Source: a virus | Strand: one strand, 5' to 3' | IMG/VR virus record: IMGVR_UViG_3300035670_000083 | Span: 1-64,000 of that record | DNA: 64,000 nt | Part shown: positions 31,121 through 49,748 of the stretch, piece after piece | Position numbering within the stretch: the first letter of the stretch is position 1 | How the letters are laid out: the number at the start of each line of letters is the position of its first letter | Notes under the pieces: model-generated | Database searches by the model: none | Told to the model about the DNA's origin: nothing | What the model saw: only the letters and a program-made list of their open reading frames with translations | Made by a program: the position numbers and the translations under genes

Positions 31121-31379
31121 GTGAATTCAATAAATTTTCCAAGTTATCTTTATTGAATCCATGTAGTGGTTTTCCTCCTAGTTTAAGGTATTCTTGATAT
31201 AATTGGTTGTAATCATCCCAAGTATATAATTGTCCAGTTATTTCTGAATAAATAACTCCTGTATCATTTTGAGTTATGGTTTTATTTTGTAATTTAGTAT
31301 TACCATAATTTGGACCGACTTGTCCTATAAGTTCTGTACCAGATATTGATTCTTTGAATTGTTTGAAATTTTTAATCAT
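31113..31379 (-). CDS. Hypothetical protein with MIKNFKQFKES leader
   Basis: Leader motif. Confidence 0.6.
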   Translation of the reverse strand: MIKNFKQFKESISGTELIGQVGPNYGNTKLQNKTITQNDTGVIYSEITGQLYTWDDYNQLYQEYLKLGGKPLHGFNKDNLENLLNSLN

Positions 31380-31852
31380 TTTTCAACTGGTATTTTTTCA
31401 TAGAATTCATCTACTTCTTCTAATGAATAAAAATCTTTATCAAAGTTATAATTTAGTTCATAAAAGAAATTATCCTTTAGCTCTATTTCTTCTCCATTTG
31501 ATAGTTCAATAAAAGTTTTGTCCAATTCGTAATTATTGTAAATAGATTTAATAGGTAAACTAATTTTACCATTTCTATCTATCAGATTACAAATTATTTT
31601 AATATTAGATTCAATTAGTTCTAATATTTTAGTGAAGGTTGAATCTTTTGTCATCATTTTGTAATCTTTGAAATCTTCATCACTTGTTTTATCAAATTCA
31701 CTTAAAAAACTTTGTTCTCTTTTAGAGATTCTTAGTCCTTTGTTCATTTTATCCAATATTTGATTCAGTCTAGTTTCTTTGAAACTGGACTCATTTATGT
31801 TCAAATATTTTAGGAATTTCTTAAATGACATAATATTAGTTTTATTTTCCAT
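31376..31852 (-). CDS. Hypothetical protein with leader and LNQILDK motif
   Basis: Start at MENKTN follows TAATATATA; IMSFKKFLKYLNINE leader. Confidence 0.55.
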   Translation of the reverse strand: MENKTNIMSFKKFLKYLNINESSFKETRLNQILDKMNKGLRISKREQSFLSEFDKTSDEDFKDYKMMTKDSTFTKILELIESNIKIICNLIDRNGKISLPIKSIYNNYELDKTFIELSNGEEIELKDNFFYELNYNFDKDFYSLEEVDEFYEKIPVEK

Positions 31853-31911
31853 TAAGTATATATTAAGGATTGGATTTAAATTTATATATAGAATATAATT
31901 AAAAGTTAGAA

Positions 31912-35397: not shown

Positions 35398-35412
35398 TTT
35401 CATATATATTTT

Positions 35413-35835
35413 ATGAGCATAGTTAAAGATTTGCGATTATATTTTTCGTATAAAAGTATCATAAAGAAAAATCGAGTTAGGTTAGAATCCGATTTCAATA
35501 TAAGGATTGATGGTGCTGATAGATTATATACGGTTATTAATGTTCCACCTGATTTAATTGGTGAAGCTTATGATTTGAAAAAATCAGATATTGATCGAAT
35601 ATCTGAATCGTATATAAAGGATTATCTTTCTAAAATTGGAAGATATCTGAATAGTATTGGTTTGGCTGAATTATATGATTTTTATGAGCCTATAAAAAAA
35701 GTCGATAAATTATCTTATCTTATTGTTTTAGGATTTAAACCATTGAATTCTGTTGAGATAAATACGATTATTTATAGAATATTATTACCAATAATTGGAA
35801 TTTCTATTATAATAGGATTATTTGTATTTCTGTAA
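35413..35835 (+). CDS. Hypothetical protein with C-terminal transmembrane helix
   Basis: ILLPIIGISIIIGLFVFL at the C-terminus. Confidence 0.55.
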   Translation: MSIVKDLRLYFSYKSIIKKNRVRLESDFNIRIDGADRLYTVINVPPDLIGEAYDLKKSDIDRISESYIKDYLSKIGRYLNSIGLAELYDFYEPIKKVDKLSYLIVLGFKPLNSVEINTIIYRILLPIIGISIIIGLFVFL

Positions 35836-35882
35836 TAAACAAATATACATTTTTATTTTATAATAAAAAAATAATTTTAATT

Positions 35883-36308
35883 ATGAGTAAATTTTATGAA
35901 ATTTCCGAGGATACCATTGAGACGTTCAATGAAGTATTTCTAACAAAATCATTTCCTATTAAAGTAGATTTTCAATTTATAGGAGCCGAAAAACAAAAAC
36001 AATTAATCAAGATTGCGAAGTTACCAGATCAGTATTCTTTTCTTTTGAATAAGGAACTTTTAGTAACTATTAATGAAGATTTATTGAATGTTTTTGATGA
36101 AGAGTCTATCAAGATATTGATAGAACAAGAATTAGATAAGGTTTCTATTGATATAGATAGTGGTAAAATTAAAATGATAAGACCAGATTTAACAACTTTT
36201 GCTTCTATCATAAACAAATATGGAATTGAAAAAGTGAGTAGAGCTAATCAAGTTGAAGAATTGTATCATCAGCAGAAATCTGACGGAGCTGAAGAATTAA
36301 TTTTCTAA
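35883..36308 (+). CDS. Hypothetical protein
   Basis: 141 aa ORF. Confidence 0.55.
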   Translation: MSKFYEISEDTIETFNEVFLTKSFPIKVDFQFIGAEKQKQLIKIAKLPDQYSFLLNKELLVTINEDLLNVFDEESIKILIEQELDKVSIDIDSGKIKMIRPDLTTFASIINKYGIEKVSRANQVEELYHQQKSDGAEELIF

Positions 36309-36330
36309 AATAAAAAATAAAAAAAAAGAT

Positions 36331-36543
36331 ATGAATCAAAAATACTATGAAGCTTTGAAATTAAGATTTGAAGCTAAAATGAAAGAAGCCGAGGCTAATC
36401 TAAGCATTTATCTATCTACCGATAATTTGGCTGCTATCGGAGAACATTCAGATTTAATGGAAGAACAAGAGAAATGGATTGAAGTTTGGGTAGATTCCAA
36501 AGATAAACTCGAATCTTTAAAAGAGTTAAAAAAAATAATATAA
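36331..36543 (+). CDS. Hypothetical protein
   Basis: 70 aa; AAIGEHSDL motif. Confidence 0.55.
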   Translation: MNQKYYEALKLRFEAKMKEAEANLSIYLSTDNLAAIGEHSDLMEEQEKWIEVWVDSKDKLESLKELKKII

Positions 36544-36547
36544 TAAT

Positions 36548-37210
36548 ATGAGTAATGATAAAAAATTCGAAAGTTTAACTGTAAAACCAGATGTAAATTT
36601 CTTTGAAAATGAAGAAATGTTTAGAGTCTTAGACTTTGATGTTGAAGCTAACTTGGATTCTAAGGTAGAATCTGTTGAAAATTACATGATGGAAAATACA
36701 GGTGAAGGAAAAACTGAGCAAGAGAAAGATTCTCTTTATGCAAATGCTCAACAACTATATCTTGAATATAAAAATGAATTAAGAGAAGCTAAATTCAATT
36801 TTTTCTTTAATCGACCACAATATAACTTATTGACTGATTTACTATTGAAAAAATTGGAGTATGATGTTAATACCTTATTCATAGCTTTGGAACTTAATGA
36901 AATGTTAAATTCAATTCATGGAACTAAATTTAAAAATGATAACGATTTAGCTGAAATTAAACTAACAGCAACTGAATTAACTTATGTTTATCATTTGATA
37001 CAAACACATAAAGTTAAAGGTTTGACTCAACAAGCTTTTACTTTCGCTTCTCTTTTGACTAGAATTGGAGACGCATCAAAAATCATAAACTATTATGATG
37101 CGAAGGCAAAAACTTTAGTTGAAGAGATTCAAAAATGGGCTTTGTCATTAGATGGTGGTCAACTATTGATGTCAGAAGTTTTACCAAGTCAAGAAACCAA
37201 TGAAGGATAA
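36548..37210 (+). CDS. Hypothetical protein
   Basis: 220 aa ORF. Confidence 0.55.
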   Translation: MSNDKKFESLTVKPDVNFFENEEMFRVLDFDVEANLDSKVESVENYMMENTGEGKTEQEKDSLYANAQQLYLEYKNELREAKFNFFFNRPQYNLLTDLLLKKLEYDVNTLFIALELNEMLNSIHGTKFKNDNDLAEIKLTATELTYVYHLIQTHKVKGLTQQAFTFASLLTRIGDASKIINYYDAKAKTLVEEIQKWALSLDGGQLLMSEVLPSQETNEG

Positions 37211-37412
37211 CATAAAAGACTTAGTTAGTAGAATTAAAGGATTGAGGCGATTGAGAAATGCCTCAATCCGATATTCTGAATATATTTCGGGATCCTTGGA
37301 TAAAAGCATTTCTTACTCTGATTATTTATCAGATTTGAGTGATTCTTATGGTCCTGATGCAATATCCTATTCAAGTTATTTATCAGAAAATGTTGAAAAA
37401 TCAACTAAGTGA
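37200..37412 (+). CDS. Hypothetical protein with YS(E/D/S)YLS repeats
   Basis: Three copies of I.YS.Y(I/L)S in 70 aa. Confidence 0.4.
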   Translation: MKDNIKDLVSRIKGLRRLRNASIRYSEYISGSLDKSISYSDYLSDLSDSYGPDAISYSSYLSENVEKSTK

Positions 37413-37618
37413 TTAAAATTTTCTTTTATTTTCTGAGGTAGGTTTTTGTGTTTTGTTTTTGCAAAATCTCTTAAAGCTTTTTTACCTTTCTTTTTTCCTT
37501 TTTTCATAAAGGATTTAGCTACTTTTTTTATTTCTTCTGGAACATCTTTAGTTTGTCCTGTTGCGTAAGCATAGGCTGCTCCCATAAGTCTTTGTTGTGA
37601 TTTAGATTTAGAAGGCAT
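37376..37618 (-). CDS. DUF3008-like small basic protein
   Basis: MPSKSKSQQRLMGAA...LRDFAKTKHKNLP. Confidence 0.6.
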   Translation of the reverse strand: MPSKSKSQQRLMGAAYAYATGQTKDVPEEIKKVAKSFMKKGKKKGKKALRDFAKTKHKNLPQKIKENFNHLVDFSTFSDK

Positions 37619-37645
37619 ATAATTTGAGATATTTTTTATTATATA

Positions 37646-38260
37646 TTAAATTGGACAATGTGATGCGGAGTAAATGAATTTCCAATTTCTTTTAATATTC
37701 AATCCTAATGATTCTGCTGTTGTTATAATATCCTCTAAACACTCAGAATCTGATCCTCCAACGATTTCAATATTTTCACCTTTTAATTTTTGAAAAATTT
37801 CATAAAGTTTTTTTGGTAAATGGAACCATTTATGATTATTGCCAATATAAACTATTATAGTTCCTTCTTTTGTTGGAAAGAATTCACCTTTTTTCAATAA
37901 ATTTTTATTTTCTTTTTCTTTTATGTTGTTATAAACTTTTTTATCCAGTATTTTTTTATAGAAATCGGCATTAACATCATAATTGTATCTTTTTTCAATT
38001 AGTTCTTTTTGATTTGTAAAGTGATATAGATCATCATGGATAGGTATTTCGGGTTCTTCGTGATAAAGGTAATCTTTATCTACATTCTTACCTTCTACGT
38101 GGTTGTCCCAAATTTGATAAACATTTTCAAAGTTATTACAATGCTTCTTTAATTCGTTTAAATAAAGTTCTGTAAAGAATTTAGAGAATGACTTTTGTAC
38201 ATCAACAATTATAAGTGAAGTTTTAATATTGTGACTTTCAAATGTTTTAAGATATTTCAT
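37646..38260 (-). CDS. Isochorismatase/cysteine-hydrolase-like protein with MKYLKTFES leader
   Basis: LIIVDVQKSF, IEKRY, VGGSDSECL (Asp-Lys-Cys triad pattern). Confidence 0.6.
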   Translation of the reverse strand: MKYLKTFESHNIKTSLIIVDVQKSFSKFFTELYLNELKKHCNNFENVYQIWDNHVEGKNVDKDYLYHEEPEIPIHDDLYHFTNQKELIEKRYNYDVNADFYKKILDKKVYNNIKEKENKNLLKKGEFFPTKEGTIIVYIGNNHKWFHLPKKLYEIFQKLKGENIEIVGGSDSECLEDIITTAESLGLNIKRNWKFIYSASHCPI

Positions 38261-38274
38261 ACTATTATATATTT

Positions 38275-38303
38275 AAAAACCCACTAAAAATTAGTGGGTT
38301 TTT
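38275..38303. terminator. Intrinsic terminator
   Basis: AAAAACCCACTAA-aaa-TTAGTGGGTTTTT. Confidence 0.8.
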
Positions 38304-38327
38304 AAATAATTTAAAATTTTGTTTTGA

Positions 38328-38975
38328 TTAAAGTGGAAGTTCTTCTTCTCCTTCTTCACCTTCTGTTTCTTCTCCTTCTATTTCCTCGAATTCTCCTTGT
38401 CCCTGAGCTTGTCCTTGCATCTGAGTTTGTCCCTGAGCTTGTCCTTGCATCTGAGCTTGTCCCTGAGCTTGTCCTTGCATCTGAGCTTGTCCCTGAGCTT
38501 GTCCTTGTCCTTGAGCTTGTCCTTGCATCTGAGATTGTCCTTGCATCTGAGTTTGTCCTTGAGATTGTCCTTGCATTTGAGGTTCTTCTTGCATCTGTCC
38601 CTGTCCTTGCATTTGACCTTGTGGTTGTGCTTCCACTTGAATCTGTGCTTGTTGACCTTGAGGTTGAGTCTGTACTTCTCCTTGTCCTTGTGCATCACCA
38701 GTTAAAGCTCCTGCTGGAATTTGATCAACATTTAAGAAGTTCTGTGTTATATATTTTACAACTTCTTCAGCTATATCAACATCACCAAAGAATTGTCTTA
38801 GGTTTTTACCAGTGTTGTCTTTCACTTTCTTAACATAAGCGTTAATCATTGATTGTGGTATGTCAATCATTGTTCTCACCTTATAGATGTCGTTAACTTG
38901 TAGAACAGATTCTTTAATGATCTCTTCTTTTCTTTTTTTGGTTTGATAGTTTCCAAATTTTCTAATATGTTTCAT
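38328..38975 (-). CDS. Protein with MKHIRKF leader and Gln/Gly-rich repeat tail
   Basis: QGQAQMQGQAQ repeats; acidic end. Confidence 0.7.
   Translation of the reverse strand: MKHIRKFGNYQTKKRKEEIIKESVLQVNDIYKVRTMIDIPQSMINAYVKKVKDNTGKNLRQFFGDVDIAEEVVKYITQNFLNVDQIPAGALTGDAQGQGEVQTQPQGQQAQIQVEAQPQGQMQGQGQMQEEPQMQGQSQGQTQMQGQSQMQGQAQGQGQAQGQAQMQGQAQGQAQMQGQAQGQTQMQGQAQGQGEFEEIEGEETEGEEGEEELPL
38395..38580. repeat. Coding tandem repeat (QGQAQMQGQA, about 30 bp unit)
   Basis: CCCTGAGCTTGTCCTTGCATCTGAGCTTGT and variants in tandem. Confidence 0.85.
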
Positions 38976-39026
38976 ATTAATAGATAATTTTTTATATACT
39001 ATATATTAGTTAAAAAAACTCACTTT

Positions 39027-39584
39027 TTACCGAGTTCCGAAGAATATTCCAAGAACAATTGCTGCTGCTGTGGCAACTCCTGTTGTTGTCCATCCTATTA
39101 TTTTTTGGGTATTTGATTTATTGAGATCTTTTTTTAATCCTTCGATAATCTCATCTTTATTTTCTATTTGTTGATTTGTTAAATCTAATTCTAAAATCTT
39201 TGAGGCAACTTGTTGTTTAAGATTGTTTATCTGTGACTTTTGATTATTTAGTTGTTGATTCAAATTTTCAATTTTTACTTCCTGTATATGTATTTTTCTA
39301 TCTTGTTCATCAATAACAGCGACAAAATATGAATCTAAAGAATCACATTTCATGCCTTTTTTCTCAAAAAGTTCTAATAGATCAGTGTTGTTATCTAATA
39401 TTTGAAGTTGTTTTACTGTTATTATTACTCCTATTGTATCACCATTTTGTACAAAGTATTCTGGTAAATTTTCTTTATTGAAAACAACTGATTCTGTATT
39501 TGTTTCAGTAGATATTGTATCTATTTCTTGTGAGAAAACATTTATTGTGATAAAGAGTGATAAGATTAAAAAAATTGTTCTCAT
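39027..39584 (-). CDS. Secreted/membrane coiled-coil protein (possible spanin component)
   Basis: N-terminal signal peptide, coiled coil, C-terminal hydrophobic segment. Confidence 0.4.
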   Translation of the reverse strand: MRTIFLILSLFITINVFSQEIDTISTETNTESVVFNKENLPEYFVQNGDTIGVIITVKQLQILDNNTDLLELFEKKGMKCDSLDSYFVAVIDEQDRKIHIQEVKIENLNQQLNNQKSQINNLKQQVASKILELDLTNQQIENKDEIIEGLKKDLNKSNTQKIIGWTTTGVATAAAIVLGIFFGTR

Positions 39585-39588
39585 TTTG

Positions 39589-40038
39589 TTATTTTGTTTT
39601 TTCTTTGATTGAATCTAATAAAGATTTTCCAGTTCTATTTGGTGGATTTTTTTTAAATTCTTCAATATCTTTATTTAATTTTTCTTTTTCTGATAAGGCA
39701 TCTTTCAATTCTTTGTTTTTTCTCATCAGGTTTTTATCAACTTGTATCAATCTAAGGTTCAATTCTTCGTATTCTGATTCAAGTTTTACTAGTTTGATAG
39801 AATCTTTTTCAAATTTCATAAGAAGTGTTTCATATTCTTTTCTTATCTTGTTTTTCTCTTTTTCAATTAATCTATTTTCTTTTTCAAGTTCTTTTCTTTG
39901 TTCTTTGTGAGTATTTCCATCTAACATTGCTTTTGTATAGAAAACTCCACATACTATAAATAGTATAATAATAATAACTGATTTTAGATCTAATCTAGCG
40001 ACGAATGTTGTTCCGAACTCTTTTAGGTTTTCTTTCAT
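39589..40038 (-). CDS. Membrane-anchored coiled-coil protein (possible i-spanin)
   Basis: N-terminal TM (VIIIILFIVCGVFY) followed by a long coiled coil. Confidence 0.4.
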   Translation of the reverse strand: MKENLKEFGTTFVARLDLKSVIIIILFIVCGVFYTKAMLDGNTHKEQRKELEKENRLIEKEKNKIRKEYETLLMKFEKDSIKLVKLESEYEELNLRLIQVDKNLMRKNKELKDALSEKEKLNKDIEEFKKNPPNRTGKSLLDSIKEKTK

Positions 40039-40116
40039 GATTTTTAATAATTTTTTGATTTAGTATTCAAAAAAATAACTATATTTGTAAATATATATCA
40101 AAAATAAAACTCCCTA

Positions 40117-40644
40117 ATGATTAAAAGAATTGTATCATATGACTTTGATGGAACTTTATGTTTCACACCTGAACCTATTGAAGGTGAAAAAGTTTGGAAA
40201 AAAGAAACTGGAACCGATTGGCCTTATACTGGTTGGTGGTCAAAAAAAGAAACATTGGATTTGAATATTTTTGATATTCCTGTTAATCAATTTGTTTATA
40301 GGAAATATCTTGATGATATGGCTCGTAAAGAGGAAAAGAATGATACTTTTGTATTGTTGGCAACTGGTAGACTTGAAAGATTAAGAAAAGAAGTTGAAAA
40401 AGTTCTGAATCATCATAACTTATCATTTGATAAGGTTTCTCTTAATACAGGTGGAGATACTTATACATTCAAGAAAAGACTTTTTGAGGATTTGATTAAA
40501 GAATATAATCCTGAGGTTTTTGTTATGTATGATGATAGGCATGAGCATTTGGTAAAATTTGAAGAATGGGCGAAAACACAACCTTGTCGTGTAGAAATCA
40601 TAGATGTTACTAAGAGTAATAAAACACCAAAAATTATAAATTAA
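40117..40644 (+). CDS. HAD-superfamily phosphatase
   Basis: YDFDGTL, ATGR, K, YDDR; TATATTTG at 40080-40087 upstream. Confidence 0.8.
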   Translation: MIKRIVSYDFDGTLCFTPEPIEGEKVWKKETGTDWPYTGWWSKKETLDLNIFDIPVNQFVYRKYLDDMARKEEKNDTFVLLATGRLERLRKEVEKVLNHHNLSFDKVSLNTGGDTYTFKKRLFEDLIKEYNPEVFVMYDDRHEHLVKFEEWAKTQPCRVEIIDVTKSNKTPKIIN

Positions 40645-40648
40645 AAAT

Positions 40649-40930
40649 ATGAGTACAATAACAGAAAAAAAATCAAAATCAAAAGTAGATGAAATACTTT
40701 CAAAGCCATTTAAGTTGATTCTTCACAACGATGATTATAATTCCTTCGAATGGGTAATAACTTGTTTGATTAAAGTTTGTGGACATGATCATCAACAAGC
40801 TGAGCAGTGTGCTCATATAGTTCATTTTAACGGTGAATGTGATGTTAAAAGAGGTGATTATGAGAAACTATCTGTGATGAAGGAGAAATTACAGAATGCT
40901 GGTTTGTCAGTTACTATAGAATCAAATTAG
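40649..40930 (+). CDS. clpS: ATP-dependent Clp protease adaptor ClpS
   Basis: LILHNDDYNSFEWVITCL..VCGH...QAEQCAHIVHFNG...VK.G. Confidence 0.9.
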   Translation: MSTITEKKSKSKVDEILSKPFKLILHNDDYNSFEWVITCLIKVCGHDHQQAEQCAHIVHFNGECDVKRGDYEKLSVMKEKLQNAGLSVTIESN

Positions 40931-40951
40931 TAAAGTATATCAAGAAATAGA

Positions 40952-40982
40952 CTGAACCTCACATTACATATACATCTTGTTA
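40952..40982. repeat. Site S0: truncated attC-like site (right arm only)
   Basis: CTGAACCTCACATTACATATACATCTTGTTA is nearly identical to the right arm of S4 (43349-43379). Confidence 0.7.
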
Positions 40983-41117
40983 TATTCAGTAATTTTTAAA
41001 TTATTTTCAAAAAATCGTTTTTTTTTTTTATTAATATATAGAATATAAATATTATCAGAAGAAATGAAAAATGTAAAACTATATAAAGTGGATACGTATT
41101 AATTTTTTTATTACACA

Positions 41118-41160
41118 TAACGTTCCGATTATTTGCGTTCGGTGGGGCGTTACACCACCA
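41118..41160. repeat. Site S1: degenerate attC-like site (left core only)
   Basis: TTATTACACATAACG is identical to the approach to S9; no matching right arm. Confidence 0.55.
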
Positions 41161-41171
41161 ATGATTATTAT

Positions 41172-42004
41172 ATGAGTAAAGAAATGAGAAGGTTAATAGT
41201 TACTTTTAATAAGTTTGTTATTAAAGAAAAGTCTAATAATATTAAAAAATAGTTTCAAAATATGATGCTCCGTATGGAATTATTTTTGATGGGGAAAACA
41301 AAATATTAGTTGGTGATATGCACCAAACACCAGTTGAATTATCTAAAAAACTTGAAAATAAAGTAGTTAATGTTGCAAACAAATATGGTTATTATGGTGA
41401 AGGTATTGGTTTGGAACATAACGAAGCAATCACCAAATCATCTTTTTATGAAAGATTAGACCCCAAAAAACATTATGGTTCTTGGGATAGAAAATTAATT
41501 GAAAGTGGTGAAGTACCTGAAGATAAAAAATATTTTTTTTTGTATGCTTTGTTTTCAAATCCAAAAGAAAATCATAGATTAGAAAAATTATTGGAAAATA
41601 CGGAAGAAGAAGATACAATTTTTTATGTCTTACTAAAAACTATACCCGATTGGTCAGCAGATATGGGTAAATTTAGTTTAGGACAAAAAGAACTAAATAA
41701 ATTTCTTAAAGAAATAAGTGAAAATGGAATTGATTTTATTCAAATGTCACAACAAAAAGCAGATGAAAAATCATTATCAGAATTTTTAGATTTAGGAGAA
41801 AAATTACAATGGCCTGAAAAAAATTGGCAAGATTATCCAAATATGGCAGGTAAATTTGCAAGAGTGGCGACAACCATTAGAGACCAATTTTTAATTAATG
41901 CTGGACCTGGGGTTTATTTTGTCGGTGCGGGACATCTTAAAGATATTGTAAAAATGGGCAAAGAAAAAAAATTATCTTTAATAGGGGGCGAAAAAATCAT
42001 GTAA
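41172..42004 (+). pseudogene. Frameshifted cassette gene (leader MSKEMRRLIVTFNKFVIKE)
   Basis: ATG at 41172 stops at TAG 41250; adding one A to the run at 41244-41249 joins it in frame to ORF 41318..42004. Confidence 0.65.
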
Positions 42005-42017
42005 AAAATATTGTGTA

Positions 42018-42065
42018 TAACGTCCGATGATAAACAATCGCTTTAATGTTGTTTATCATTTGTTA
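42018..42065. repeat. Site S2: attC-like hairpin
   Basis: TAAC-GTCCG-ATGATAAACAA-loop-TTGTTTATCAT-TT-GTTA; perfect 11 bp stem. Confidence 0.9.
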
Positions 42066-42143
42066 TATTCAGTTAAATTTTTTCAATTATTTCAAAAAAC
42101 CGTTTTCTTTATTAATATATAAAAGAAAAATAATATTAAAACT

Positions 42144-42818
42144 ATGAAACATATAAAAAAATATGAAACTTTTCTAGAAAAAAAATGGATACTAGGAATA
42201 AATGAAAACATTTTTGATAAAATTGAATCACTAGTTAAGGGAAAATCAGACTCTGGTAAAATTATATCCGAATTCTTAACTAAGAACGGAATTAAAGAAA
42301 CTGGGACTGCATATTCAATTCTCTATTTGGGCGGTGCTAATCCAGGCAAATCCGAATTAAGTCACCCATTTGATTATTTACATTATACACCAGGTATCGC
42401 TAAGATTACAGAAGATGGTGTTTTAGTATTAAATGATGAAAAATCTAAATCATTAAAAACACCAGATACATTATCATTTCTAGCAATTATTGAAAAAGAT
42501 GATATTGTTAAAAATTGGACATTTGGATTAAAACAAGGGTGTAGTGTAAATAAAAATGATTATACTTTTGATTTAACAAAGGATATTTCAACTCTAACTT
42601 TTAAAAAATCTATGTGGTCAATGTTGAAACAAACTTGGATTAAAGGAGAAGATGAAGTTGTAGAACTTGATAATGATATTACTGAACTTAAAGAGGAAGA
42701 TACTATATCCTTCAAAACCCCTATGAATATGATAACTCTACAACAATGGGTTGATAAGTTGAATGAGACAGGATGGGTTAAAGAAAATAGTAAATATTTT
42801 AAAGAATATATAAAGTAG
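42144..42818 (+). CDS. Cassette gene, hypothetical, MKHIKKYETFLE leader
   Basis: Single ORF between S2 and S3 with own TAATATATA (42113-42121). Confidence 0.75.
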   Translation: MKHIKKYETFLEKKWILGINENIFDKIESLVKGKSDSGKIISEFLTKNGIKETGTAYSILYLGGANPGKSELSHPFDYLHYTPGIAKITEDGVLVLNDEKSKSLKTPDTLSFLAIIEKDDIVKNWTFGLKQGCSVNKNDYTFDLTKDISTLTFKKSMWSMLKQTWIKGEDEVVELDNDITELKEEDTISFKTPMNMITLQQWVDKLNETGWVKENSKYFKEYIK

Positions 42819-42901
42819 GCAATAATCCACAAATAAAAAACACCAATTCGTTAAGTGAAATTGATTATTTTATATCCACAATTGGAAAACGAAACAGAAC
42901 T

Positions 42902-42949
42902 TAACGGTTGAGAATATGTGTTCGTTTTAATGACACATATTCTTTGTTA
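42902..42949. repeat. Site S3: attC-like hairpin
   Basis: TAAC-GGTTG-AGAATATGTGT-loop-ACACATATTCT-TT-GTTA; same geometry and nearly the same loop as S2, different stem sequence. Confidence 0.9.
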
Positions 42950-42975
42950 TATTTAGTATCAAAAATTTTATACAA

Positions 42976-43218
42976 ATGAAAAAATGTAAATGTATTAAAG
43001 AATCTTCTTGGTTTTTAATTGATGATTCCTTCGATAAGAATTCTAAATTAAATGGTGGTGGATTTTCTTTTCAAGTAGGTAGTGAATATGATTATTTTGA
43101 AGAAGATACACCATTTGGAAATGGTATGTCGGTTATCCATCCTAAACATGGGAAAGAAAATCCTACTGGTTTTGATGAAAGAAGATTCTACGAACACTTT
43201 GAAATAATAAACTCATAA
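42976..43218 (+). CDS. Cassette gene, hypothetical 80 aa
   Basis: Single ORF between S3 and S4. Confidence 0.7.
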   Translation: MKKCKCIKESSWFLIDDSFDKNSKLNGGGFSFQVGSEYDYFEEDTPFGNGMSVIHPKHGKENPTGFDERRFYEHFEIINS

Positions 43219-43236
43219 AATTTTTGATATTGAACC

Positions 43237-43379
43237 TAACGATACTCAGATATATTTAGGTTTTCTTTTTAATGTAGTGTGAGATTTGAAACACTACCTG
43301 TCAATATACCAACAAACTCTATTAGAAGCACTTACCTTCAATTAACCACCGAATCTCACATTACATATACACCTTGTTA
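43237..43379. repeat. Site S4: chimeric attC-like site
   Basis: Left 37 nt identical to S6 left arm; remainder is a different hairpin (GTAGTGTGAGATT...AATCTCACATTAC) ending ACATATACACCTTGTTA like S8. Confidence 0.8.
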
Positions 43380-43488
43380 TGTGTAGGTGTGATTATTTAC
43401 CACCAAACTCTATTCGGAGAACTGAAAGAAAATTTTAGAAAAAAGAAGGGAGGGAAATTTAATTCAGAATATTTTATATATATCATCT

Positions 43489-44304
43489 ATGATACTCAAA
43501 TTTAATCAGTTTATAACTGAAAGACTTTCCTATTCTGAAGATGTTGAGATGATCTCAAAGATTATAATTGAATACTTATATGGTAAAGAAAACTGGGAAT
43601 CAGAAGAAGTGATAAAAATAGATAATTCGGTTATAAATGAAGTAAGAATACAATTCATAGATAATTTAAGTAAGTTAGGAAAAAAATCATCATTTAATCC
43701 AAATAAATCAGATTATAATAATCGTATGATATTTTTAGAATTTGATCCAGATGAAATCACCGAAGGATTGTTAAATCATGAAGTATTTCATGGGTGGGAA
43801 TGGATTCGAAATGAAGGAAAACATTTAACTAATTCTTTTCAATTCGCAATTATTCAATTAAATAATTACTTTGAAGAAGATGAAAACATATCTGAAATTA
43901 TTCAACTATTTTATTTAATGTCAGATGCTGAAATTAGATCTCATTTAAATAGTGATATATTTGAATTTAAAAGATGGAAAGAGGATAAAAATACCACTTC
44001 GATGGAAGAAATAGATTTATTAATAGAGGAAACAGATACATTTCAAAATTATCAATTTGTGAAAAAATTTAATCTAAACGAATATTTAAATAAATTGAGT
44101 ACTGAGAAATTAGATGAATTTATATCAGCAGTTGAACAAATGAAGTATATGAAAGATGGTGAAGAGTCTGAAATTATGGTGAAGAGATTTTCTGATTTAG
44201 AGAGAAGTAAATTTATACAAAAGTTAAATATTATACACAAACAACAAAGTGAAAAAATTACTAAATATTTAGGAAAATTAATATTATATTTCAGAAACTC
44301 TTAA
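43489..44304 (+). CDS. Cassette gene, putative zinc metallopeptidase with MILKFNQFITE leader
   Basis: LNHEVFHG (HExxH) plus downstream DAEIRSH glutamate. Confidence 0.6.
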   Translation: MILKFNQFITERLSYSEDVEMISKIIIEYLYGKENWESEEVIKIDNSVINEVRIQFIDNLSKLGKKSSFNPNKSDYNNRMIFLEFDPDEITEGLLNHEVFHGWEWIRNEGKHLTNSFQFAIIQLNNYFEEDENISEIIQLFYLMSDAEIRSHLNSDIFEFKRWKEDKNTTSMEEIDLLIEETDTFQNYQFVKKFNLNEYLNKLSTEKLDEFISAVEQMKYMKDGEESEIMVKRFSDLERSKFIQKLNIIHKQQSEKITKYLGKLILYFRNS

Positions 44305-44345
44305 ATTTTTTTTAGAAAAAATTTATTTGATACATTTTTAATTAC

Positions 44346-44353
44346 TATATTTG
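44346..44353 (+). promoter_or_regulatory. Bacteroidota-type -7 promoter element
   Basis: TATATTTG 20 nt upstream of ATG 44373; TTTG at 44326-44329. Confidence 0.6.
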
Positions 44354-44372
44354 CGTATATAATAAAAATAAA

Positions 44373-44626
44373 ATGGAAAATCTCAAACAAGAAAATAACT
44401 ACGAAAAATTTGTTATCAGACAGAAGGTGGTTGGGTATTAAAAGAAGGCGTGGCTAAAAAGGAAGAGATAAGTTTTTTTGTTGTTAGTCCTGATGGTAAA
44501 GAACTTACTTGTTTAGATGGTTCAAATATATTCTCTTCTGTTGATAAATCTGATTTGTTAGAATCGTTTAATATGAGGTTTAAAACAAACTGTGTTAGTG
44601 TAGAAAGACCAAATGTTTTTGAATAA
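44373..44626 (+). pseudogene. Frameshifted cassette gene (about 84 aa if repaired)
   Basis: MENLKQENNYEKFVI then one base missing near 44418, then TEGGWVLKEGVAKKEEISFFVVSPDG...RPNVFE*. Confidence 0.6.
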
Positions 44627-44652
44627 GAAAATAATTGAAAAATAATTCAATA

Positions 44653-44732
44653 TAACGGTTGCAAATATGAGAAGTAAATTTTTTCCATAAAAAAATAGAA
44701 AAATCAAAATTTATTTCTTATATTTGTTGTTA
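44653..44732. repeat. Site S5: attC-like hairpin
   Basis: TAAC-GGTTG-21 bp stem with two G:T pairs-TT-GTTA. Confidence 0.88.
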
Positions 44733-44758
44733 TATTTAGTAAAAATTAATTTATACAT

Positions 44759-44938
44759 ATGAAATACGAAGCACTTAAAAAAGAATATTATGCAGTTTAT
44801 GAAAAAGAACCAAGACACCAGAATGAAAAGAATGGTGTGATACTTGCACCATATAACACGAAAGAAGAAGCTGAACAAGCGAGAATTAAATATGGTTATA
44901 GTGATGATAACTACTATGTTGATAAACTCATAAATTAA
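44759..44938 (+). CDS. Cassette gene, hypothetical 59 aa, absent from the ORF track
   Basis: MKYEALKKEYYAVYEKEPRHQNEKNGVILAPYNTKEEAEQARIKYGYSDDNYYVDKLIN fills the S5-S6 interval. Confidence 0.7.
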   Translation: MKYEALKKEYYAVYEKEPRHQNEKNGVILAPYNTKEEAEQARIKYGYSDDNYYVDKLIN

Positions 44939-44951
44939 TTTTTATTGAATA

Positions 44952-45073
44952 TAACGATACTCAGATATATTTAGGTTTTCTTTTTAATATATACTAAAAA
45001 CAATTTATGAAAGATAATAAACACATAAAAAGTTTCAACGATCATCAAGAAAACTTGAATATATCTGATGTTA
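44952..45073. repeat. Site S6: attC-like hairpin with promoter and gene start in the loop
   Basis: TAAC-GATAC-TCAGATATATTTAGGTTTTCTT...AAGAAAACTTGAATATATCTGA-T-GTTA; 22 bp stem, two G:T; TAATATATA at 44985-44993, ATG at 45007. Confidence 0.9.
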
Positions 45074-45288
45074 GTGGTAGTGAAATATTAAAATATCTTG
45101 ATGATAAATATCATGTAAAAGATAATCTAATGATTGTTGGTAGATTTGATAAGAACAAAAAATATAATTATATTCAATTGTCTAATGAAATATCAAAGGT
45201 ATTTGGTTTGTCAACACAACAATCATTAGATTTAGTAGAAAAGTGGAAAGATATTAGATTTGAGAAAATTATGAAAAATAGATTTTAA
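45007..45288 (+). CDS. Cassette gene beginning inside site S6
   Basis: MKDNKHIKSFNDHQENLNISDV-SGS...; the Val codon is the GTT core. Confidence 0.75.
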   Translation: MKDNKHIKSFNDHQENLNISDVSGSEILKYLDDKYHVKDNLMIVGRFDKNKKYNYIQLSNEISKVFGLSTQQSLDLVEKWKDIRFEKIMKNRF

Positions 45289-45302
45289 TATTTAATTATC
45301 AC

Positions 45303-45350
45303 TAACGTCCGATGATAAACAATCGTTTTAATGTTGTTTATCATTTGTTA
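45303..45350. repeat. Site S7: attC-like hairpin
   Basis: Identical to S2 except one loop base. Confidence 0.9.
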
Positions 45351-45461
45351 TGTGTAGGTGTGGATTATTTACTACTAAACTTCAATCGGAGAACTGAACA
45401 AAAATTTTAAAACAAAAAGAAGGGTGGGTTTTTTAATCTTACTATTTATATATAAAAGAAA

Positions 45462-45890
45462 ATGATGAAAGATTTGAGACAGTTTATTAAAACAACCATA
45501 CGTGAGTTTTTGAATGAAGCATACATTGATGAGGATGGTAATTTAAAAGACTTTAATGATAAAATATTCTATGATTTTGATAAAATTAAAAAGTTTGTAG
45601 ATTGGTTTCAAAGTGAATATAGTGATTATACTCATAAACAGGGTTGGTCTATATTCGATTCTGATACAGAAGCACCTAATGAAAAATATCATAGTGAAAG
45701 AACTTTTAATGGTAAAAAATTGAATGGATATTATTGGCAAGTTCAAAGATTAGATTCACCAAGTGATGACGAAGCATTATTTGGGAAATTACCAAATGAT
45801 TATAAGGCTGATGATTTAGCAAGAAAGTTAGGTTTAATGGTTGATGAATACGGTGTGGTTTATGGTTGGGATGGACAATCTTTTTTATAG
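45462..45890 (+). CDS. Cassette gene, hypothetical, MKDLRQFIKTTIREFLNE leader
   Basis: Single ORF between S7 and S8 with TTATATATA upstream. Confidence 0.75.
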   Translation: MMKDLRQFIKTTIREFLNEAYIDEDGNLKDFNDKIFYDFDKIKKFVDWFQSEYSDYTHKQGWSIFDSDTEAPNEKYHSERTFNGKKLNGYYWQVQRLDSPSDDEALFGKLPNDYKADDLARKLGLMVDEYGVVYGWDGQSFL

Positions 45891-45960
45891 TGTGTGGGAT
45901 TTTTCTTTTAAAATTTTCAACCGAAATATTGATTAGAACGATGAATGGAACACTTACACA

Positions 45961-46050
45961 TAACGGATGGGTGTATATGTAGGTTTTTTAACTTTAAAAT
46001 TTAATATATACTTATGAACTGAATAAAAAACTTACATATACACCTTGTTA
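45961..46050. repeat. Site S8: attC-like hairpin with TAATATATA in the loop
   Basis: TAAC-GGATG-GGTGTATATGTAGGTTTTTTA...TAAAAAACTTACATATACACC-TT-GTTA; 21 bp stem, one G:T. Confidence 0.9.
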
Positions 46051-46081
46051 TGTGTTAGTAAAAAATAAAAGGAAAAAGAAT

Positions 46082-46387
46082 ATGAAAAGATTAAAATACA
46101 TTAAAAGATTCAATGAATCAAATGAAATGGATATTGAAATTGAATTAATTGGTCCTGATATAGATGATATTTTAGATGCAATTAACTTCATAAACAATAA
46201 CTATGATGTGAGTGTAAATCCAACAGATTTTCAAGAAGGTTCTGATATGCCTTATGCTCATAAAAGAAATCAAAATTATTCAATTTTTGTTAAGTTAAAT
46301 CCTAGTGGTGATGAAAAAAGTCATATCAGATTTATTAATGATTTGTTGGATGAAAACGGATTCTCTTGTAGGTTGTATATGATTTAA
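46082..46387 (+). CDS. Cassette gene, hypothetical, MKRLKYIKRFNES leader
   Basis: ATG at 46082 preferred over the GTG at 46052. Confidence 0.75.
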   Translation: MKRLKYIKRFNESNEMDIEIELIGPDIDDILDAINFINNNYDVSVNPTDFQEGSDMPYAHKRNQNYSIFVKLNPSGDEKSHIRFINDLLDENGFSCRLYMI

Positions 46388-46414
46388 TGATATTATTTAT
46401 TTTCTTATTACACA

Positions 46415-46544
46415 TAACGATACTCAGATATATTTAGGTTTTCATTTTTAATATATAAACAAAAATAATTTAACAACATGAAAAGTTCAAATAATGTAAA
46501 AAGTTTCAAAGAGTTCAATGAAAACTTGAATATATCTGATGTTA
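46415..46544. repeat. Site S9: attC-like hairpin with promoter and gene start in the loop
   Basis: Same family as S6 with compensatory change (TTTTCATT/AATGAAAA versus TTTTCTT/AAGAAAA); TAATATATA at 46449-46457, ATG at 46478. Confidence 0.9.
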
Positions 46545-46708
46545 GTGATAGTTTTTTGTCACCCGAAGAATTTTTAATTGATTGGGAAGGTAAAGATGAT
46601 TCAACACACCCCAATCAAGATATTAGAGACGAATGGACTAAAAGAATTAATCAATTAAAAATTTATTCAAAAATGGTTCTTGATAACACTTTAAAAAATT
46701 ATCACTAA
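46478..46708 (+). CDS. Integrase-proximal cassette gene beginning inside site S9
   Basis: MKSSNNVKSFKEFNENLNISDV-SDS...; its stop TAA is part of the terminal TAAC core. Confidence 0.75.
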   Translation: MKSSNNVKSFKEFNENLNISDVSDSFLSPEEFLIDWEGKDDSTHPNQDIRDEWTKRINQLKIYSKMVLDNTLKNYH

Positions 46709-46745
46709 CTATATTATATATGTAATGACCTATAAATAATTGATT
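46706..46745. other. Site S10: candidate attI-like primary integration site
   Basis: Last TAAC core, followed by T rather than G and by no hairpin; 36 nt before the integrase ATG. Confidence 0.6.
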
Positions 46746-47549
46746 ATGAATGAAAAGGGTAAGTCAACTTTAAAGATTTGTGAACAAAAACTTAATTATC
46801 TAAATTATTCTAAAAGAACGATTGATAATTATTTATCACATATTAATAGATTTTTAAAATCACAAAATAAATCATGTTTGCATTTATCATCTAATGATTT
46901 TCAGTCATATTTAGATAATTACAAATTTACTTCTATATCGCAACAAAACCAAGTTATTAATTCTATTCGATTTCTTTATAAAGAAGTTCTCGGTAAAAAG
47001 TATGATAAAGTCTCTTTCAAAAGACCTAAATCTGAAAAGAAACTTCCACAGGTTATAGATGGTGATTATATAAAATCACAATTATCTAAAATTGATAATC
47101 TTAAACATAAGGCAATCCTCACACTAACATACTCGGTTGGATTAAGGGTTTCTGAAATAACCAATCTTAAAATTGAAGACATTGATTCAAAAAGAATGAT
47201 CATTCATATAAAAAATGCAAAAGGAAAGAAAGATAGGATTGTTCCACTTTCTGAAAATGTTTTAAATTTGCTTAGATATTATTGGAAACAATATAAACCA
47301 AAAGAATACCTTTTCAATGGATTATCCGGTAGATATTCAATTCAATCCTGTCAGAAAATATACAAAAAATATATTGATGAAAAATCATCATTTCATACAT
47401 TAAGACATTCTTCATTTACTAATTTACTTGAGTCAGGAACAGATTTGCGGATAATACAGAAAATAGCAGGTCATTCAAGCTCAAAAACAACCGAAATATA
47501 TACTCACGTTTCAAATCAAATTTTAAGGAAAGTTAAATTACCCATCTAA
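46746..47549 (+). CDS. Tyrosine recombinase, integron-integrase-like but without the IntI insertion
   Basis: SAM-like N-domain (YSKRTIDNY, SISQQNQVINSIRFLYKEVL), KKLPQVI, catalytic GLRVSE, AKGKKDR, HTLRHS, AGHSS, TEIYTH all intact. Confidence 0.92.
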   Translation: MNEKGKSTLKICEQKLNYLNYSKRTIDNYLSHINRFLKSQNKSCLHLSSNDFQSYLDNYKFTSISQQNQVINSIRFLYKEVLGKKYDKVSFKRPKSEKKLPQVIDGDYIKSQLSKIDNLKHKAILTLTYSVGLRVSEITNLKIEDIDSKRMIIHIKNAKGKKDRIVPLSENVLNLLRYYWKQYKPKEYLFNGLSGRYSIQSCQKIYKKYIDEKSSFHTLRHSSFTNLLESGTDLRIIQKIAGHSSSKTTEIYTHVSNQILRKVKLPI

Positions 47550-49748
47550 TCCCCAAGATTTTCTAGCTTCTACCATCCTTCTATTATAAGAGATTTTATT
47601 TCTTCTTATATCCAGTAATTGTTTATAATCAACTCCTTCTTCATATGATATTTTATTTAAAATATCATCAACTTTATTTCTTATCTGTATATCTTCTAAA
47701 TTATCAAAATAATCATCTACCATCCCTCTGAAATCATTCTTACCAAAAATAGATGTTAGGTTAACCAAAGTCATAACCGTATCATCATTTTTATTACCAT
47801 CAGCTTTATAAGTAATATTTCCAGTTCTTGTTGTATGTTTTATAAATGTTGTCATTTCATCTATATTTTCGTTATTATAAATAATAATTGATCTATCTTG
47901 CATTTTTTCTTGGTAATCTTTCACCATTAGGTTTTTATTCTCACCAACTTTTAATCCTATTTTTTCATCTAACGCATCTACTCTGTGTTTAAATCTAAAG
48001 AATATAGATGATCCATAGTTGTTATTTCCTTCAAATACATTCGGTAAGTGAGCAAGTAACTCATATCCGTATGTATTGACTTCTAATACAGCTTTTAAAT
48101 TATCTGTATCAAAATGATCAAAAGCTAAAACATAAAGTAATTCTGATAATTCATTGACGGATATAAGATTGCTTCTATACATTCCTATTTGTTCAAGTTG
48201 AATAAAGTCAAGTATGTTTCTATAATTCTTATTTTGTCTTTCTATTAGATCTATCGGCTTTGATTTTAATTTGAAAATATTTATCACCGTATAGTCCTGT
48301 CCTAATCCTTCAGATACATCTATACTTAATAGTATCCGATAATTTTTTCTTATTTGTGGATTATAAATTTCTTTATTCGGATGCCATTTTAGATCTTTGT
48401 AAGAGAATTTAAGTTTTTCTTCTATTTCAGGAATTTCCTGCCATTCAAATAATGTTTTTCTATCAGTTAATTCTTTTATTAATCCATCATCTAATAATGA
48501 TCTAGATGAGTTAATAAACTTCAAGTCAAATTCTTGGTTAAAAGCTTCTTCACCACCAATATCTTTGATTGTTTGTTTTTTCCAAGTTGTTATTTCAGCA
48601 ATTTCTGGTAATTTAATATCATTTATTGTTTCTTTAATGATATCTTCTTCCTGACAATCATCAGAATTAAAAACATGAACAACCCACTTATTTAACTCGT
48701 CATCAAATCTCAGCTCTGATTTATTTTTTGGAAAAGATTCTTTAATCCTACTTAAAACATCTTCTGGTTTGACATTGTAGTGATCTAATTTCTTTTGATT
48801 CAATCTTATGTATGTCACGAATCTTTTCGGAACTTGCCACCAATAAACTCTTTTTGCCACATAAGATGATTTTTCGCCTTCAGGCTTTTCAGCTTCTATT
48901 AAAAGTTTGTGAAATAAATTAAATCCGTTTGGAGTAGAGGTTATTATAATTTTAGAATTATCGATGTTGGCAATAGTAGGAAACACCGATTTGTAGAATT
49001 TATCTGCAATATTATCTGGTAGATAAGCAAACTCATCTAAATATAAAAAGTCAGCAGATTGACCGATAGAAGCGGTTTTTGTTGTTGCAAATCCTTTTAT
49101 ACGACTTTTATTTTCAAATGACATGAATTTCTCATTCCACTTTTTAATACCTTGTTGTAAGAAAAATGGAAGTCTTTGGTATATTTCTTTCATTTTATCA
49201 AGGATCTCAGTTGCTGTATCCAACTTATTTGCTGTTACAAGAACGTTTTTGTTATTATTAAAAAGAACAAAATGTAATATGGTTATTGCTGATGTGATAG
49301 TATTATGTGATAAAATACCATTTGTATAATATCTATGATTTGGATGATCAATAGATAAATCAAACATAGATAGTTTATGATTTGTTTTTTCTATCATTTT
49401 AACTTTTGATATTCCTTGATCAGTTTGTATGTAATCGCCTATTTTTAAATCTTTTATGTATATTTGATTAAAGTCCACATCAAATAAAATGTGATTATCA
49501 GCACCGTTAAGAAATAGTCCATTTTCTAGTTTTAAATTATATTCACTATAAGGTTGTGTTATATGTATTTGCGGAGCTATTTCATAACCAGTGTCTGTTT
49601 TCACTGATAAGTTGCAACTTATTGTATTCAATATCTTTTTGGATATATCATGTTCATTCAAATCTAAATTTCTGTATTCGAAAACTTCTATATACTCAAT
49701 TAATTTTTTTATTAAATATATTATGATAAGAGTAAAAAATCTAAACAT
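47538..49748 (-). CDS. terL: Terminase large subunit, C-terminal part preceded by C-intein
   Basis: Intein blocks then SHN|TITSA; LYLDEFA (Walker B), IITSTPNG, SIDVSEGLGQDY, NDDTVM. Confidence 0.9.
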   Translation of the reverse strand: MFRFFTLIIIYLIKKLIEYIEVFEYRNLDLNEHDISKKILNTISCNLSVKTDTGYEIAPQIHITQPYSEYNLKLENGLFLNGADNHILFDVDFNQIYIKDLKIGDYIQTDQGISKVKMIEKTNHKLSMFDLSIDHPNHRYYTNGILSHNTITSAITILHFVLFNNNKNVLVTANKLDTATEILDKMKEIYQRLPFFLQQGIKKWNEKFMSFENKSRIKGFATTKTASIGQSADFLYLDEFAYLPDNIADKFYKSVFPTIANIDNSKIIITSTPNGFNLFHKLLIEAEKPEGEKSSYVAKRVYWWQVPKRFVTYIRLNQKKLDHYNVKPEDVLSRIKESFPKNKSELRFDDELNKWVVHVFNSDDCQEEDIIKETINDIKLPEIAEITTWKKQTIKDIGGEEAFNQEFDLKFINSSRSLLDDGLIKELTDRKTLFEWQEIPEIEEKLKFSYKDLKWHPNKEIYNPQIRKNYRILLSIDVSEGLGQDYTVINIFKLKSKPIDLIERQNKNYRNILDFIQLEQIGMYRSNLISVNELSELLYVLAFDHFDTDNLKAVLEVNTYGYELLAHLPNVFEGNNNYGSSIFFRFKHRVDALDEKIGLKVGENKNLMVKDYQEKMQDRSIIIYNNENIDEMTTFIKHTTRTGNITYKADGNKNDDTVMTLVNLTSIFGKNDFRGMVDDYFDNLEDIQIRNKVDDILNKISYEEGVDYKQLLDIRRNKISYNRRMVEARKSWGLDG
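49302..49748 (-). mobile_element. Split intein, C-terminal fragment
   Basis: Block B-like ADNH, IKDLKIGD, block F MFDLSI...YYTNGI, block G SHN followed by Thr. Confidence 0.88.

Follow-up and report, generated by a model that had tools for sequence, protein, structure and literature searches.

We analysed a window of 64,000 nucleotides (nt), comprising positions 1 to 64,000 of IMG/VR virus record IMGVR_UViG_3300035670_000083. The window lies within a 100-kb viral record of about 27% G+C, and the source is a large phage from sea water. An array of gene cassettes spans approximately positions 40950 to 46709 on the + strand, where small open reading frames (ORFs) alternate with TAAC...GTTA hairpins, and 30 nt separate the end of the array from the start of a tyrosine recombinase gene (46740–47549, +). 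The two ends of most of these cassettes are complementary to each other in a cassette-specific manner. We consider it likely, at a probability of roughly 0.7, that these ends together make up the outer (R-type) arm of the cassette's own recombination site, each contributing one strand. Such long cognate ends are a longer, differently patterned version of a property already known from the attC sites of integrons.

Complementary ends of the cassettes

A sequence-only reading of this stretch had listed five cassettes with matching ends and had claimed that the sequence after each GTTA pairs with the sequence before the next TAAC, and not with the flank across the adjacent hairpin. All five end pairs exist where that reading placed them, at lengths of 15–26 nt. 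Counted from GTTA and TAAC, pairing extended over 25–26 nt in the cassette at 42946–43240, 26 nt in 44729–44955, 25 nt in 45070–45306, 15 nt in 45347–45964 and 17 nt in 46541–46709, the last being the cassette closest to the recombinase gene. On the + strand the five pairs were irregular only at positions 9 (T:G) and 11 (G:T). The first cassette has its left outer arm at 42946–42970 and its right outer arm at 43216–43240, the latter beginning at the stop codon of ORF 42976–43218. The arms of the second (44729–44754 and 44930–44955) scored 20 and those of the third (45070–45094 and 45282–45306) scored 16.5, with the left arm lying inside ORF 45007–45288. The fourth (45347–45361 and 45950–45964) scored 10. 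The last cassette (46541–46557 and 46693–46709; score 12) has a TAAC end with no hairpin following. All arms are on the + strand, and the right arms at 44930, 45282 and 45950 were recognised by both cognate pairing and folding of the circle.

All eight left ends of the array were scored against all eight right ends. The five pairs reached cognate scores of 10–20, and when the right ends were reassigned among the eight cassettes, only 10 of 40,320 permutations reached the cognate sum. Outside the array, none of 1,428 GTTA...TAAC pairs spaced 100–1500 nt apart in the same AT-rich window scored 10, the maximum being 8. The sequence-only reading had named equal complementarity between different cassettes or in AT-rich controls as evidence that would count against it; neither comparison came close, and nor did that among the related phages, where cognate ends paired over a median of 15 nt and non-cognate ends over 5 nt.

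The other three cassettes of the array match weakly or lack matching ends. Cassette 46047–46418 (+) paired over 9 nt without gaps, and over more with one insertion or deletion, for a score of 5. Cassette 42062–42905 (+) had a cognate score of 1.5 and a left end that matched the right ends at 44955 and 44656 better than its own; it is probably chimeric or decayed. The unit at 43376–44656 (+) had a cognate score of 2, and its left end reached 10 with the right end at 45964. Because it contains two ORFs and has a left end of the arm type of cassette 45347–45964, this unit looks like a fusion. Two cassettes of the window have similar ends, and their proteins are unrelated.

The same comparison was extended to 263 non-identical cassettes (median length 320 nt) from 50 related phage records. 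The main scan demanded TAAC and GTTA, so the invariance of the core in that set follows from the design of the search. The cognate median of 15 nt was obtained over all 263 cassettes and the non-cognate median of 5 nt from 1,966 pairs of ends at the same locus; the two flanks across one hairpin also paired over a median of 5 nt (n = 206). Thus the claim that the ends pair with each other, rather than across the neighbouring hairpin, holds for the family as for the window. At positions 5–10 and 12–15, pairing was Watson-Crick in 68–84% of cassettes, against 28–60% with shuffled partners. Position 11 is a conserved G:T, with G on the left in 200 of 263 cassettes and T on the right in 259. Beyond position 15 the excess of pairing was small and near background, and it had gone by about position 22. 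The ends therefore have a fixed register and can be summarised as GTTA-N4-YAGT on the left and ATTR-N4-TAAC on the right. Within this frame we counted 197 distinct arm 11-mers; single-linkage clustering of the arms was coarse (37 clusters), yet cognate partners could still be distinguished from shuffled ones. Only 5–7 pairs of cassettes could be aligned along their length, and covariation across cassettes was used in place of an analysis of compensatory substitutions.

With one bulge allowed, 69% of cassettes had arms of at least 15 nt, 29% of at least 20 nt and 16% of fewer than 10 nt, and the bulge fell in the left arm in 51 cases and in the right arm in 4. Arm length fell as arm G+C rose (Spearman rho −0.48, P = 3e-14), from a median of 22.5 nt at an arm G+C below 20% to 15 nt at 35% or more. 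Arms of 25–26 nt are found in this very AT-rich phage because AT-rich arms run longer, and this compensation of length for composition is the expectation for a folded stem that needs a certain stability.

Two explanations that appeal to the inverted repeats themselves can be judged against these data. Short units with terminal inverted repeats might be small transposons, resembling miniature inverted-repeat transposable elements (MITEs), moved by a transposase. MITEs and insertion sequences have family-conserved repeats and duplicate their target, whereas here the repeats are cassette-specific save for a short motif (the 197 arm 11-mers), there are no target-site duplications, and unit boundaries fall in a shared YAAC core. 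The units also abut hairpins of a few conserved classes, beside a tyrosine recombinase gene. We rejected this candidate, which we regard as very improbable. Alternatively, as in invertons and shufflons, each gene might be inverted by the recombinase at the repeats that flank it. Repeats of 15–26 bp around single genes beside a tyrosine recombinase would fit, and the enzyme weakly matches tyrosine-type invertase families (E about 1e-8). However, the ends are strictly polar, the swapped state of position 11 being essentially absent, and the ORF lies on the + strand, reading toward the recombinase gene, in 259 of 263 cassettes, so that the two orientations expected of inverting segments were not found. 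Relatives vary in the presence, absence and order of units, and no cassette was seen in both orientations. Inversion was likewise ruled out and has, in our view, almost no chance of being correct.

The mobile unit and its predicted folded site

The sequence-only reading took the end pairing as a sign that the units move independently, and comparison of loci (designated by L-numbers) bore this out. A block of 315 nt, L001:6613–6927, is identical to L074:2131–2445; the DNA flanking the two copies differs on either side, and the boundaries fall in TAAC. The order of the block is TAAC, a 124-nt hairpin, GTTA, an ORF and the next TAAC. In the other informative pairs of related cassettes, too, the upstream hairpin was the shared one. 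Among cultured Polaribacter phages, Freya_10 (L083) carries and Freya_9 lacks one 307-nt hairpin-plus-cassette unit, which ends in a shared AAC and sits directly upstream of the recombinase gene, and Danklef_1 (L086) has some of the same cassettes as Freya in a changed order. By comparison of such relatives, cassette gain and loss are placed at the YAAC core, in cultured phages as well.

Hairpin and arms also recur together around different genes. Window 42902–43240 and L011:7293–7655 have in common a 48-nt hairpin (42902–42949 in the window, +) and both arms. Their ORFs also open with the same start codon and first codons and finish with the same last five codons and stop; the body of the ORF between these is unrelated and unalignable. 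This suggests a conserved cassette frame that receives different coding sequence. The arms and the 48-nt hairpin of cassette 45347–45964 recur with unrelated cargo in L037 and L033. Nearly identical arms enclosed unrelated cargo in 28 pairs from different loci; identity of 90% or more was seen for the upstream hairpin in 11 of these pairs and for the downstream hairpin in none. On these comparisons, arms and upstream hairpin form one module, and the conserved piece is contiguous only across the junction of the circle.

Recurrence of the same arm-hairpin-arm module around unrelated cargo would also be expected if the complementarity were an unselected by-product, either of a once-contiguous palindrome split by integration or of repair homogenisation in a folded circle, with only the inner hairpin and the 4-nt core mattering to recombination. 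That cassettes with mismatched ends persist in arrays agrees with this as well. However, pairing persists among the 197 different arm 11-mers and in cassettes with coding sequence in both arms, and its profile stops sharply at position 15. The increase of arm length with falling G+C is unlike an unselected remnant, and given this compensation a purely historical remnant is unlikely; we think there is a small chance that the by-product account is right.

We circularised the cassettes in silico and folded the junctions with DNA parameters, as the sequence-only reading had proposed. The circular junction was more stable than the integrated junction in all five of the cassettes it had listed, by 9.4–12.1 kcal/mol (10.0 for 42946–43240; difference in folding energy, ddG, −12.1 kcal/mol for 45070–45306 and −9.4 kcal/mol for 46541–46709). 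The weakly matching cassette 46047–46418 had a ddG of −2.6 kcal/mol. Across the family the circle was more stable in 229 of 263 cassettes, with a mean gain of 6.9 kcal/mol. The + strand was more stable than the − strand in 209 of 229 distinct hairpins and in 256 of 263 circularised sites.

The same reading had claimed that one long stem of outer arms and inner hairpin forms solely in the excised circle. The foldings agree, as one continuous stem was obtained only at the circularised junction, with the gain in stability given above. The arms nevertheless have a role open to them in the array, where in integrated single-stranded DNA they can still pair and loop out the gene. Those of cassette 44729–44955 form a 27-bp helix even in the integrated single strand. 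Window 44640–45085, folded as a single strand, gave three neighbouring helices, namely a hairpin, this 27-bp stem of cassette ends and a second hairpin, at −48.8 kcal/mol (z = −5.3) against −42.4 kcal/mol for the opposite strand.

The hairpins have a common anatomy. A near-invariant G after TAAC is paired to the T preceding GTTA, followed by a bulge of 3–4 nt on the 5′ side only and then by the inner stem, whose 3′ arm has ATT, three free bases, TATA and six bases before GTTA. In this stem T6 forms a T:G wobble in 189 of 229 distinct hairpins. Inner and outer arms are mirrored: at about 11 bp from the centre, each has an AGT that pairs with an ATT by way of a wobble. Along its 3′ side the folded site reads ATTnnnTATAn-nnnnTG-TTAnnnnYAGT. 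With putative arm borders, it can be read as a mimic of a dif/Xer core site of roughly 11-6-11.

In the model that we propose, each cassette comprises [C - inner hairpin - GTTA - left arm - ORF - right arm - TAA], with crossover in the YAA|C core. Excision as a circle would join the right arm to the cassette's own hairpin, and the + strand of the circle would fold into an outer stem of 15 bp or more, the TAACG/TGTTA core, the one-sided bulge of 3–4 nt and the inner stem. The outer stem would then be a full-length duplex binding arm for the adjacent recombinase, and cleavage would take place at the core of the folded single strand. Integron attC sites recombine in folded single-stranded form, through one strand exchange that replication resolves, and the better fold of the + strand in 256 of 263 circularised sites would be indirect support for such a route here. 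This recombinase probably needs ordinary duplex arms, because it is without the extra domain of integron integrases. As the array splits the arm between the ends of a cassette, a complete local site would exist only in the circle, although in long single-stranded DNA the ends could still meet across the gene. The completed hairpin of the circle is thus probably the docking site of the phage's own recombinase. A bias toward integration arising from the circle's stem, as the sequence-only reading inferred, is plausible.

A role in RNA is an alternative reading. The 5′ and 3′ ends of each cistron would pair and the hairpins would fold between cistrons, to process, stabilise or regulate transcripts, and the coincidence with the recombination core would be secondary. 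In its favour, the strand that folds better is the coding strand, on which the wobbles would be G:U in 256 of 263 sites, and the arms lie in or beside untranslated ends. However, the arms keep a fixed register that starts right at the crossover core, carry a conserved motif mirrored in the inner stem, and are not placed by start or stop codons, their distances to which vary widely. In 37% of 187 cassettes with a clear + strand ORF, the ATG lies upstream of GTTA and the left arm forms part of the coding sequence, so that passing ribosomes would disrupt its pairing. In Freya_10, a 62-nt cassette that contains no ORF (L083:3733–3794) retains two 17-nt arms around a 28-nt loop, with the G:T at position 11, and cassettes of 108–118 nt in metagenomic loci also have matched arms. 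An Rfam search and a terminator scan at this array gave no Rfam family and no terminator-like sites. We consider a primarily RNA-level role improbable.

Several points nonetheless weigh against our interpretation of the ends as arms of a recombination site. The evidence throughout is comparative or thermodynamic. Because 259 of the 263 ORFs are on the folding strand, the same pairing, with G:U wobbles, would exist in the mRNA, and strand does not separate DNA from RNA; clear reversed-ORF cassettes number only 2, which gives no power to do so. Because arms and hairpin are co-inherited, part of the complementarity reflects shared ancestry rather than independent covariation. The same outer arms (GTTATGTGTAGGTGTG type) also occur with upstream hairpins of 48, 89 and 123 nt (for example L018:2999 v window 45347), so arms and hairpins are sometimes reassorted, which a single TAA|C crossover fails to explain. 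Long arms are dispensable for persistence in an array, because arms are short or do not match in two of the eight window cassettes and in about 16% of the family. Finally, the 11-6-11 reading hinges on the end chosen for the second (inner) arm.

Relation to integrons and Xer systems

As a classical control, we applied the same scoring to 14 cassettes of the piece of Vibrio chromosomal integron contained in Vibrio phage Va_90-11-286_p16 (PMC9892861). Cognate ends of the control paired over 8–14 nt (median 10) and non-cognate ends over 4 nt, and circularisation gained 3.6 kcal/mol. The sequence-only reading had taken the R box of roughly 7 bp as the classical baseline. Published descriptions do put the R box at 7 bp, with no requirement for its 4 variable bp to pair within the array (PMC5371416), or describe R boxes as heptanucleotides, the bottom strand being cleaved in R′ (PMC2727003), but this figure understates what the Vibrio array pairs. 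Phage and classical arms therefore differ in degree.

The phage array resembles an integron in several respects. It lies beside an attI-like site and the gene of a tyrosine recombinase; the imperfect inverted repeats that bound integron cassettes, between an inverse core (RYYYAAC) and a core (GTTRRRY), have their counterpart in hairpins with YAAC/GTTR cores, with crossover at the core; the start of a cassette is complementary to its own far-end inverse core, so that the full site exists only in the circle; and single cassettes are gained, lost and reordered at the core, including beside the recombinase gene. Cassettes, attI and the integrase gene follow one another on the + strand and are all read in one direction, as they are on the bottom strand of a classical integron, and crossover lies at YAA|C, on the 5′ side of each hairpin. 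The candidate attI consists of TAAC followed by TATATTATATAT and lies just 5′ of the recombinase gene (46706–46739, +). Most of the 27 related loci listed keep its motif, TAAC-TATWATATATA, in the stretch that separates the last cassette from the start codon of the recombinase gene, and the candidate looks like the insertion site.

Other features set the phage array apart. Its cognate pairing has a median of 15 nt and reaches 26–28 nt, with the fixed G:T at position 11 and the YAGT/ATTR motif, and its gain on circularisation is 2–3 times larger than that of the control (−6.9 to −12 v −3.6 kcal/mol). In the phage, the hairpin moves together with the ORF that follows it and the ORFs are directed at the recombinase gene, whereas integrons normally have attC at the 3′ end of ORFs that a common promoter serves and that read away from intI and attI; the hairpin precedes each phage gene because the ORFs sit on the + (folding) strand. 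Classical attC sites have an unpaired central spacer, and extrahelical bases in their L box select the strand; the phage site has its one-sided bulge of 3–4 nt and the conserved G:T wobbles in both arms, and no pattern like the classical extrahelical G and T was identified.

The enzyme differs as well. The window recombinase (269 amino acids; PF00589 and PF13495) is IntI/Xer-like, and the usual catalytic motifs GLRVSE, HTLRH and EIYTH can be read in its sequence. It lacks the IntI-specific insertion: its match to the integron integrase model TIGR02249 (160 bits; cut-off 265) falls into two pieces and skips profile positions 181–253. Its top NCBIfam match was the XerA-type family NF040815 at 175.8 bits, below the cut-off of 220, and the XerC and XerD families matched at about 140 bits each, far under their cut-offs. 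Relatives with 58–81% identity were found on 80 viral contigs, many of 100–360 kb, and most of these carry the same type of array upstream of the recombinase gene.

Val et al. (2005) reportedly described the folded single-stranded CTX attP and XerCD. In cholera phage CTX, a folded single-stranded attP is used by XerCD (PMC3442271). The phage system shares with Xer/dif and CTX attP a Xer-like enzyme without the IntI insertion, and with the putative arm borders given above its hairpin would mimic a duplex core site, two arms of roughly 11 bp enclosing a centre of 6–7 nt that is partly unpaired. Unlike CTX, the enzyme is encoded by the phage, and the site stands on stacked small cassettes with one arm that is cassette-specific.

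Sites of this kind have been noticed in phages before. Qi et al. (2023) predicted attC sites in phages as clusters of attC sites lacking integron-integrases (CALINs), including two sites in Polaribacter phage P12002L with no associated recombinase (PMC9892861). P12002L_attC1, in the primer table of that paper, belongs to the 48-nt hairpin class of the window, with loop TCGTTTTAATG. It was cloned with 7-nt flanks of the integrated junction and was the sole site that IntI1 failed to recombine (PMC9892861). In contrast to the extended phage arms described here, Qi et al. report no pairing of the ends beyond the R box, and our literature search found no description of extended cognate arms.

The innovation that made folded single strands open to recombination is held to be the extra domain of IntI (PMC4792948, PMC7790495). 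The Bacteroidota phages described here (50 records and the cultured Polaribacter phages) represent a large natural family of cassette arrays whose enzyme is without this domain. A wider interpretation, which we offer tentatively and would not yet rely on, is that the long outer stem lets an ordinary Xer-like enzyme without the integron-specific domain run an integron. The folded circle would be a full duplex mimic of an 11-6-11 site, the reactive strand would be marked by the far-end G:T wobbles of both arms in place of extrahelical bases, excision would need long single-stranded DNA and integration only the circle, and the family would be a living intermediate between Xer systems and integrons. 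The extended cassette-specific arm offers a testable account of how sites of nearly free sequence may be recognised: the cues would be their shape, two wobble pairs and a duplex arm whose length is fixed. Complementarity between the two ends of a cassette, a minor detail of classical integrons, can become the main component of a site. In practice, the rule GTTA-N4-YAGT...ATTR-N4-TAAC with matching N's flags intact cassettes and exposes chimeric ones; it could make cassettes easier to detect in viral metagenomes and inform the design of structure-specific recombination sites.

Cultured relatives and the surroundings of the array

A strict TAAC/GTTA scan of the Polaribacter phages Freya_10 and Ingeline_1 gave nothing convincing. 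With relaxed YAAC/GTTR cores, the same cassette system was found in Freya, Danklef and P12002L, with cores of CAAC/GTTG or TAAC/GTTA in Freya and P12002L. Freya_10 has arms of 28 nt (119–146 with 875–902) and of about 19 nt (1021 with 2629). In Danklef_1 the annotated integrase is only 132 nt long (L086:5849–5980), and similarity to Freya_10 starts at L083 position 4497, within the Freya_10 integrase gene (4147–4962); from this alignment, Danklef_1 seems to keep its array beside a truncated recombinase gene. P12002L (L087) has at least 8 hairpin sites of this family among its early genes (about 31100–40950, − strand) and no recombinase gene, and its DNA methyltransferase gene (38118–38816) is bounded by hairpin sites with matching ends. 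The paper describing the isolation of Freya, Danklef and Ingeline took the integrases as signs of a temperate life style and makes no mention of cassettes or hairpins (PMC8776804). By blastn, the array of the window gave a single 97-nt match to cultured phages.

The TAAC...GTTA hairpins fall into size classes of 48, about 80–90 and about 115–130 nt. In the window, all on the + strand, hairpins of 48 nt lie at 42018–42065, ahead of the 42902–42949 copy that is owned by cassette 42946–43240, and at 45303–45350, owned by cassette 45347–45964. Those of intermediate size are at 44653–44732 (80 nt), owned by cassette 44729–44955, and at 45961–46050 (90 nt). The long ones are at 44952–45073 (122 nt), owned by cassette 45070–45306, and at 46415–46544 (130 nt), owned by the last cassette, with start codons at 45007 and 46478, respectively, in their loops. 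ORFs 45007–45288 and 46478–46708 start in these loops and read across the 3′ arm, GTTA and the left outer arm. The two ORFs share an N-terminal stretch because both read through the 3′ arm of the hairpin and the left outer arm. The junction at 43237–43379 (+) is composite and does not fold as one hairpin: its left half is like the 122–130-nt class (44952 and 46415), and its right half resembles the hairpin end at 46032–46050 and the distal end of the array at 40951–40983.

That distal end consists of the 3′ half of a hairpin and GTTA only, directly after a ClpS-like gene (40649–40930), which has an HAD_SAK_1 gene (40117–40644) beside it. Farther upstream, window 38331–38690 contains periodic repeats of 12/18 nt inside overlapping ORFs on both strands, encoding a low-complexity repeat protein. 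On the other side of the array, the large terminase gene (47538–49748, − strand) encodes 736 amino acids, of which residues 113–149 weakly match an intein splicing domain (E = 0.0015, below the cut-off).

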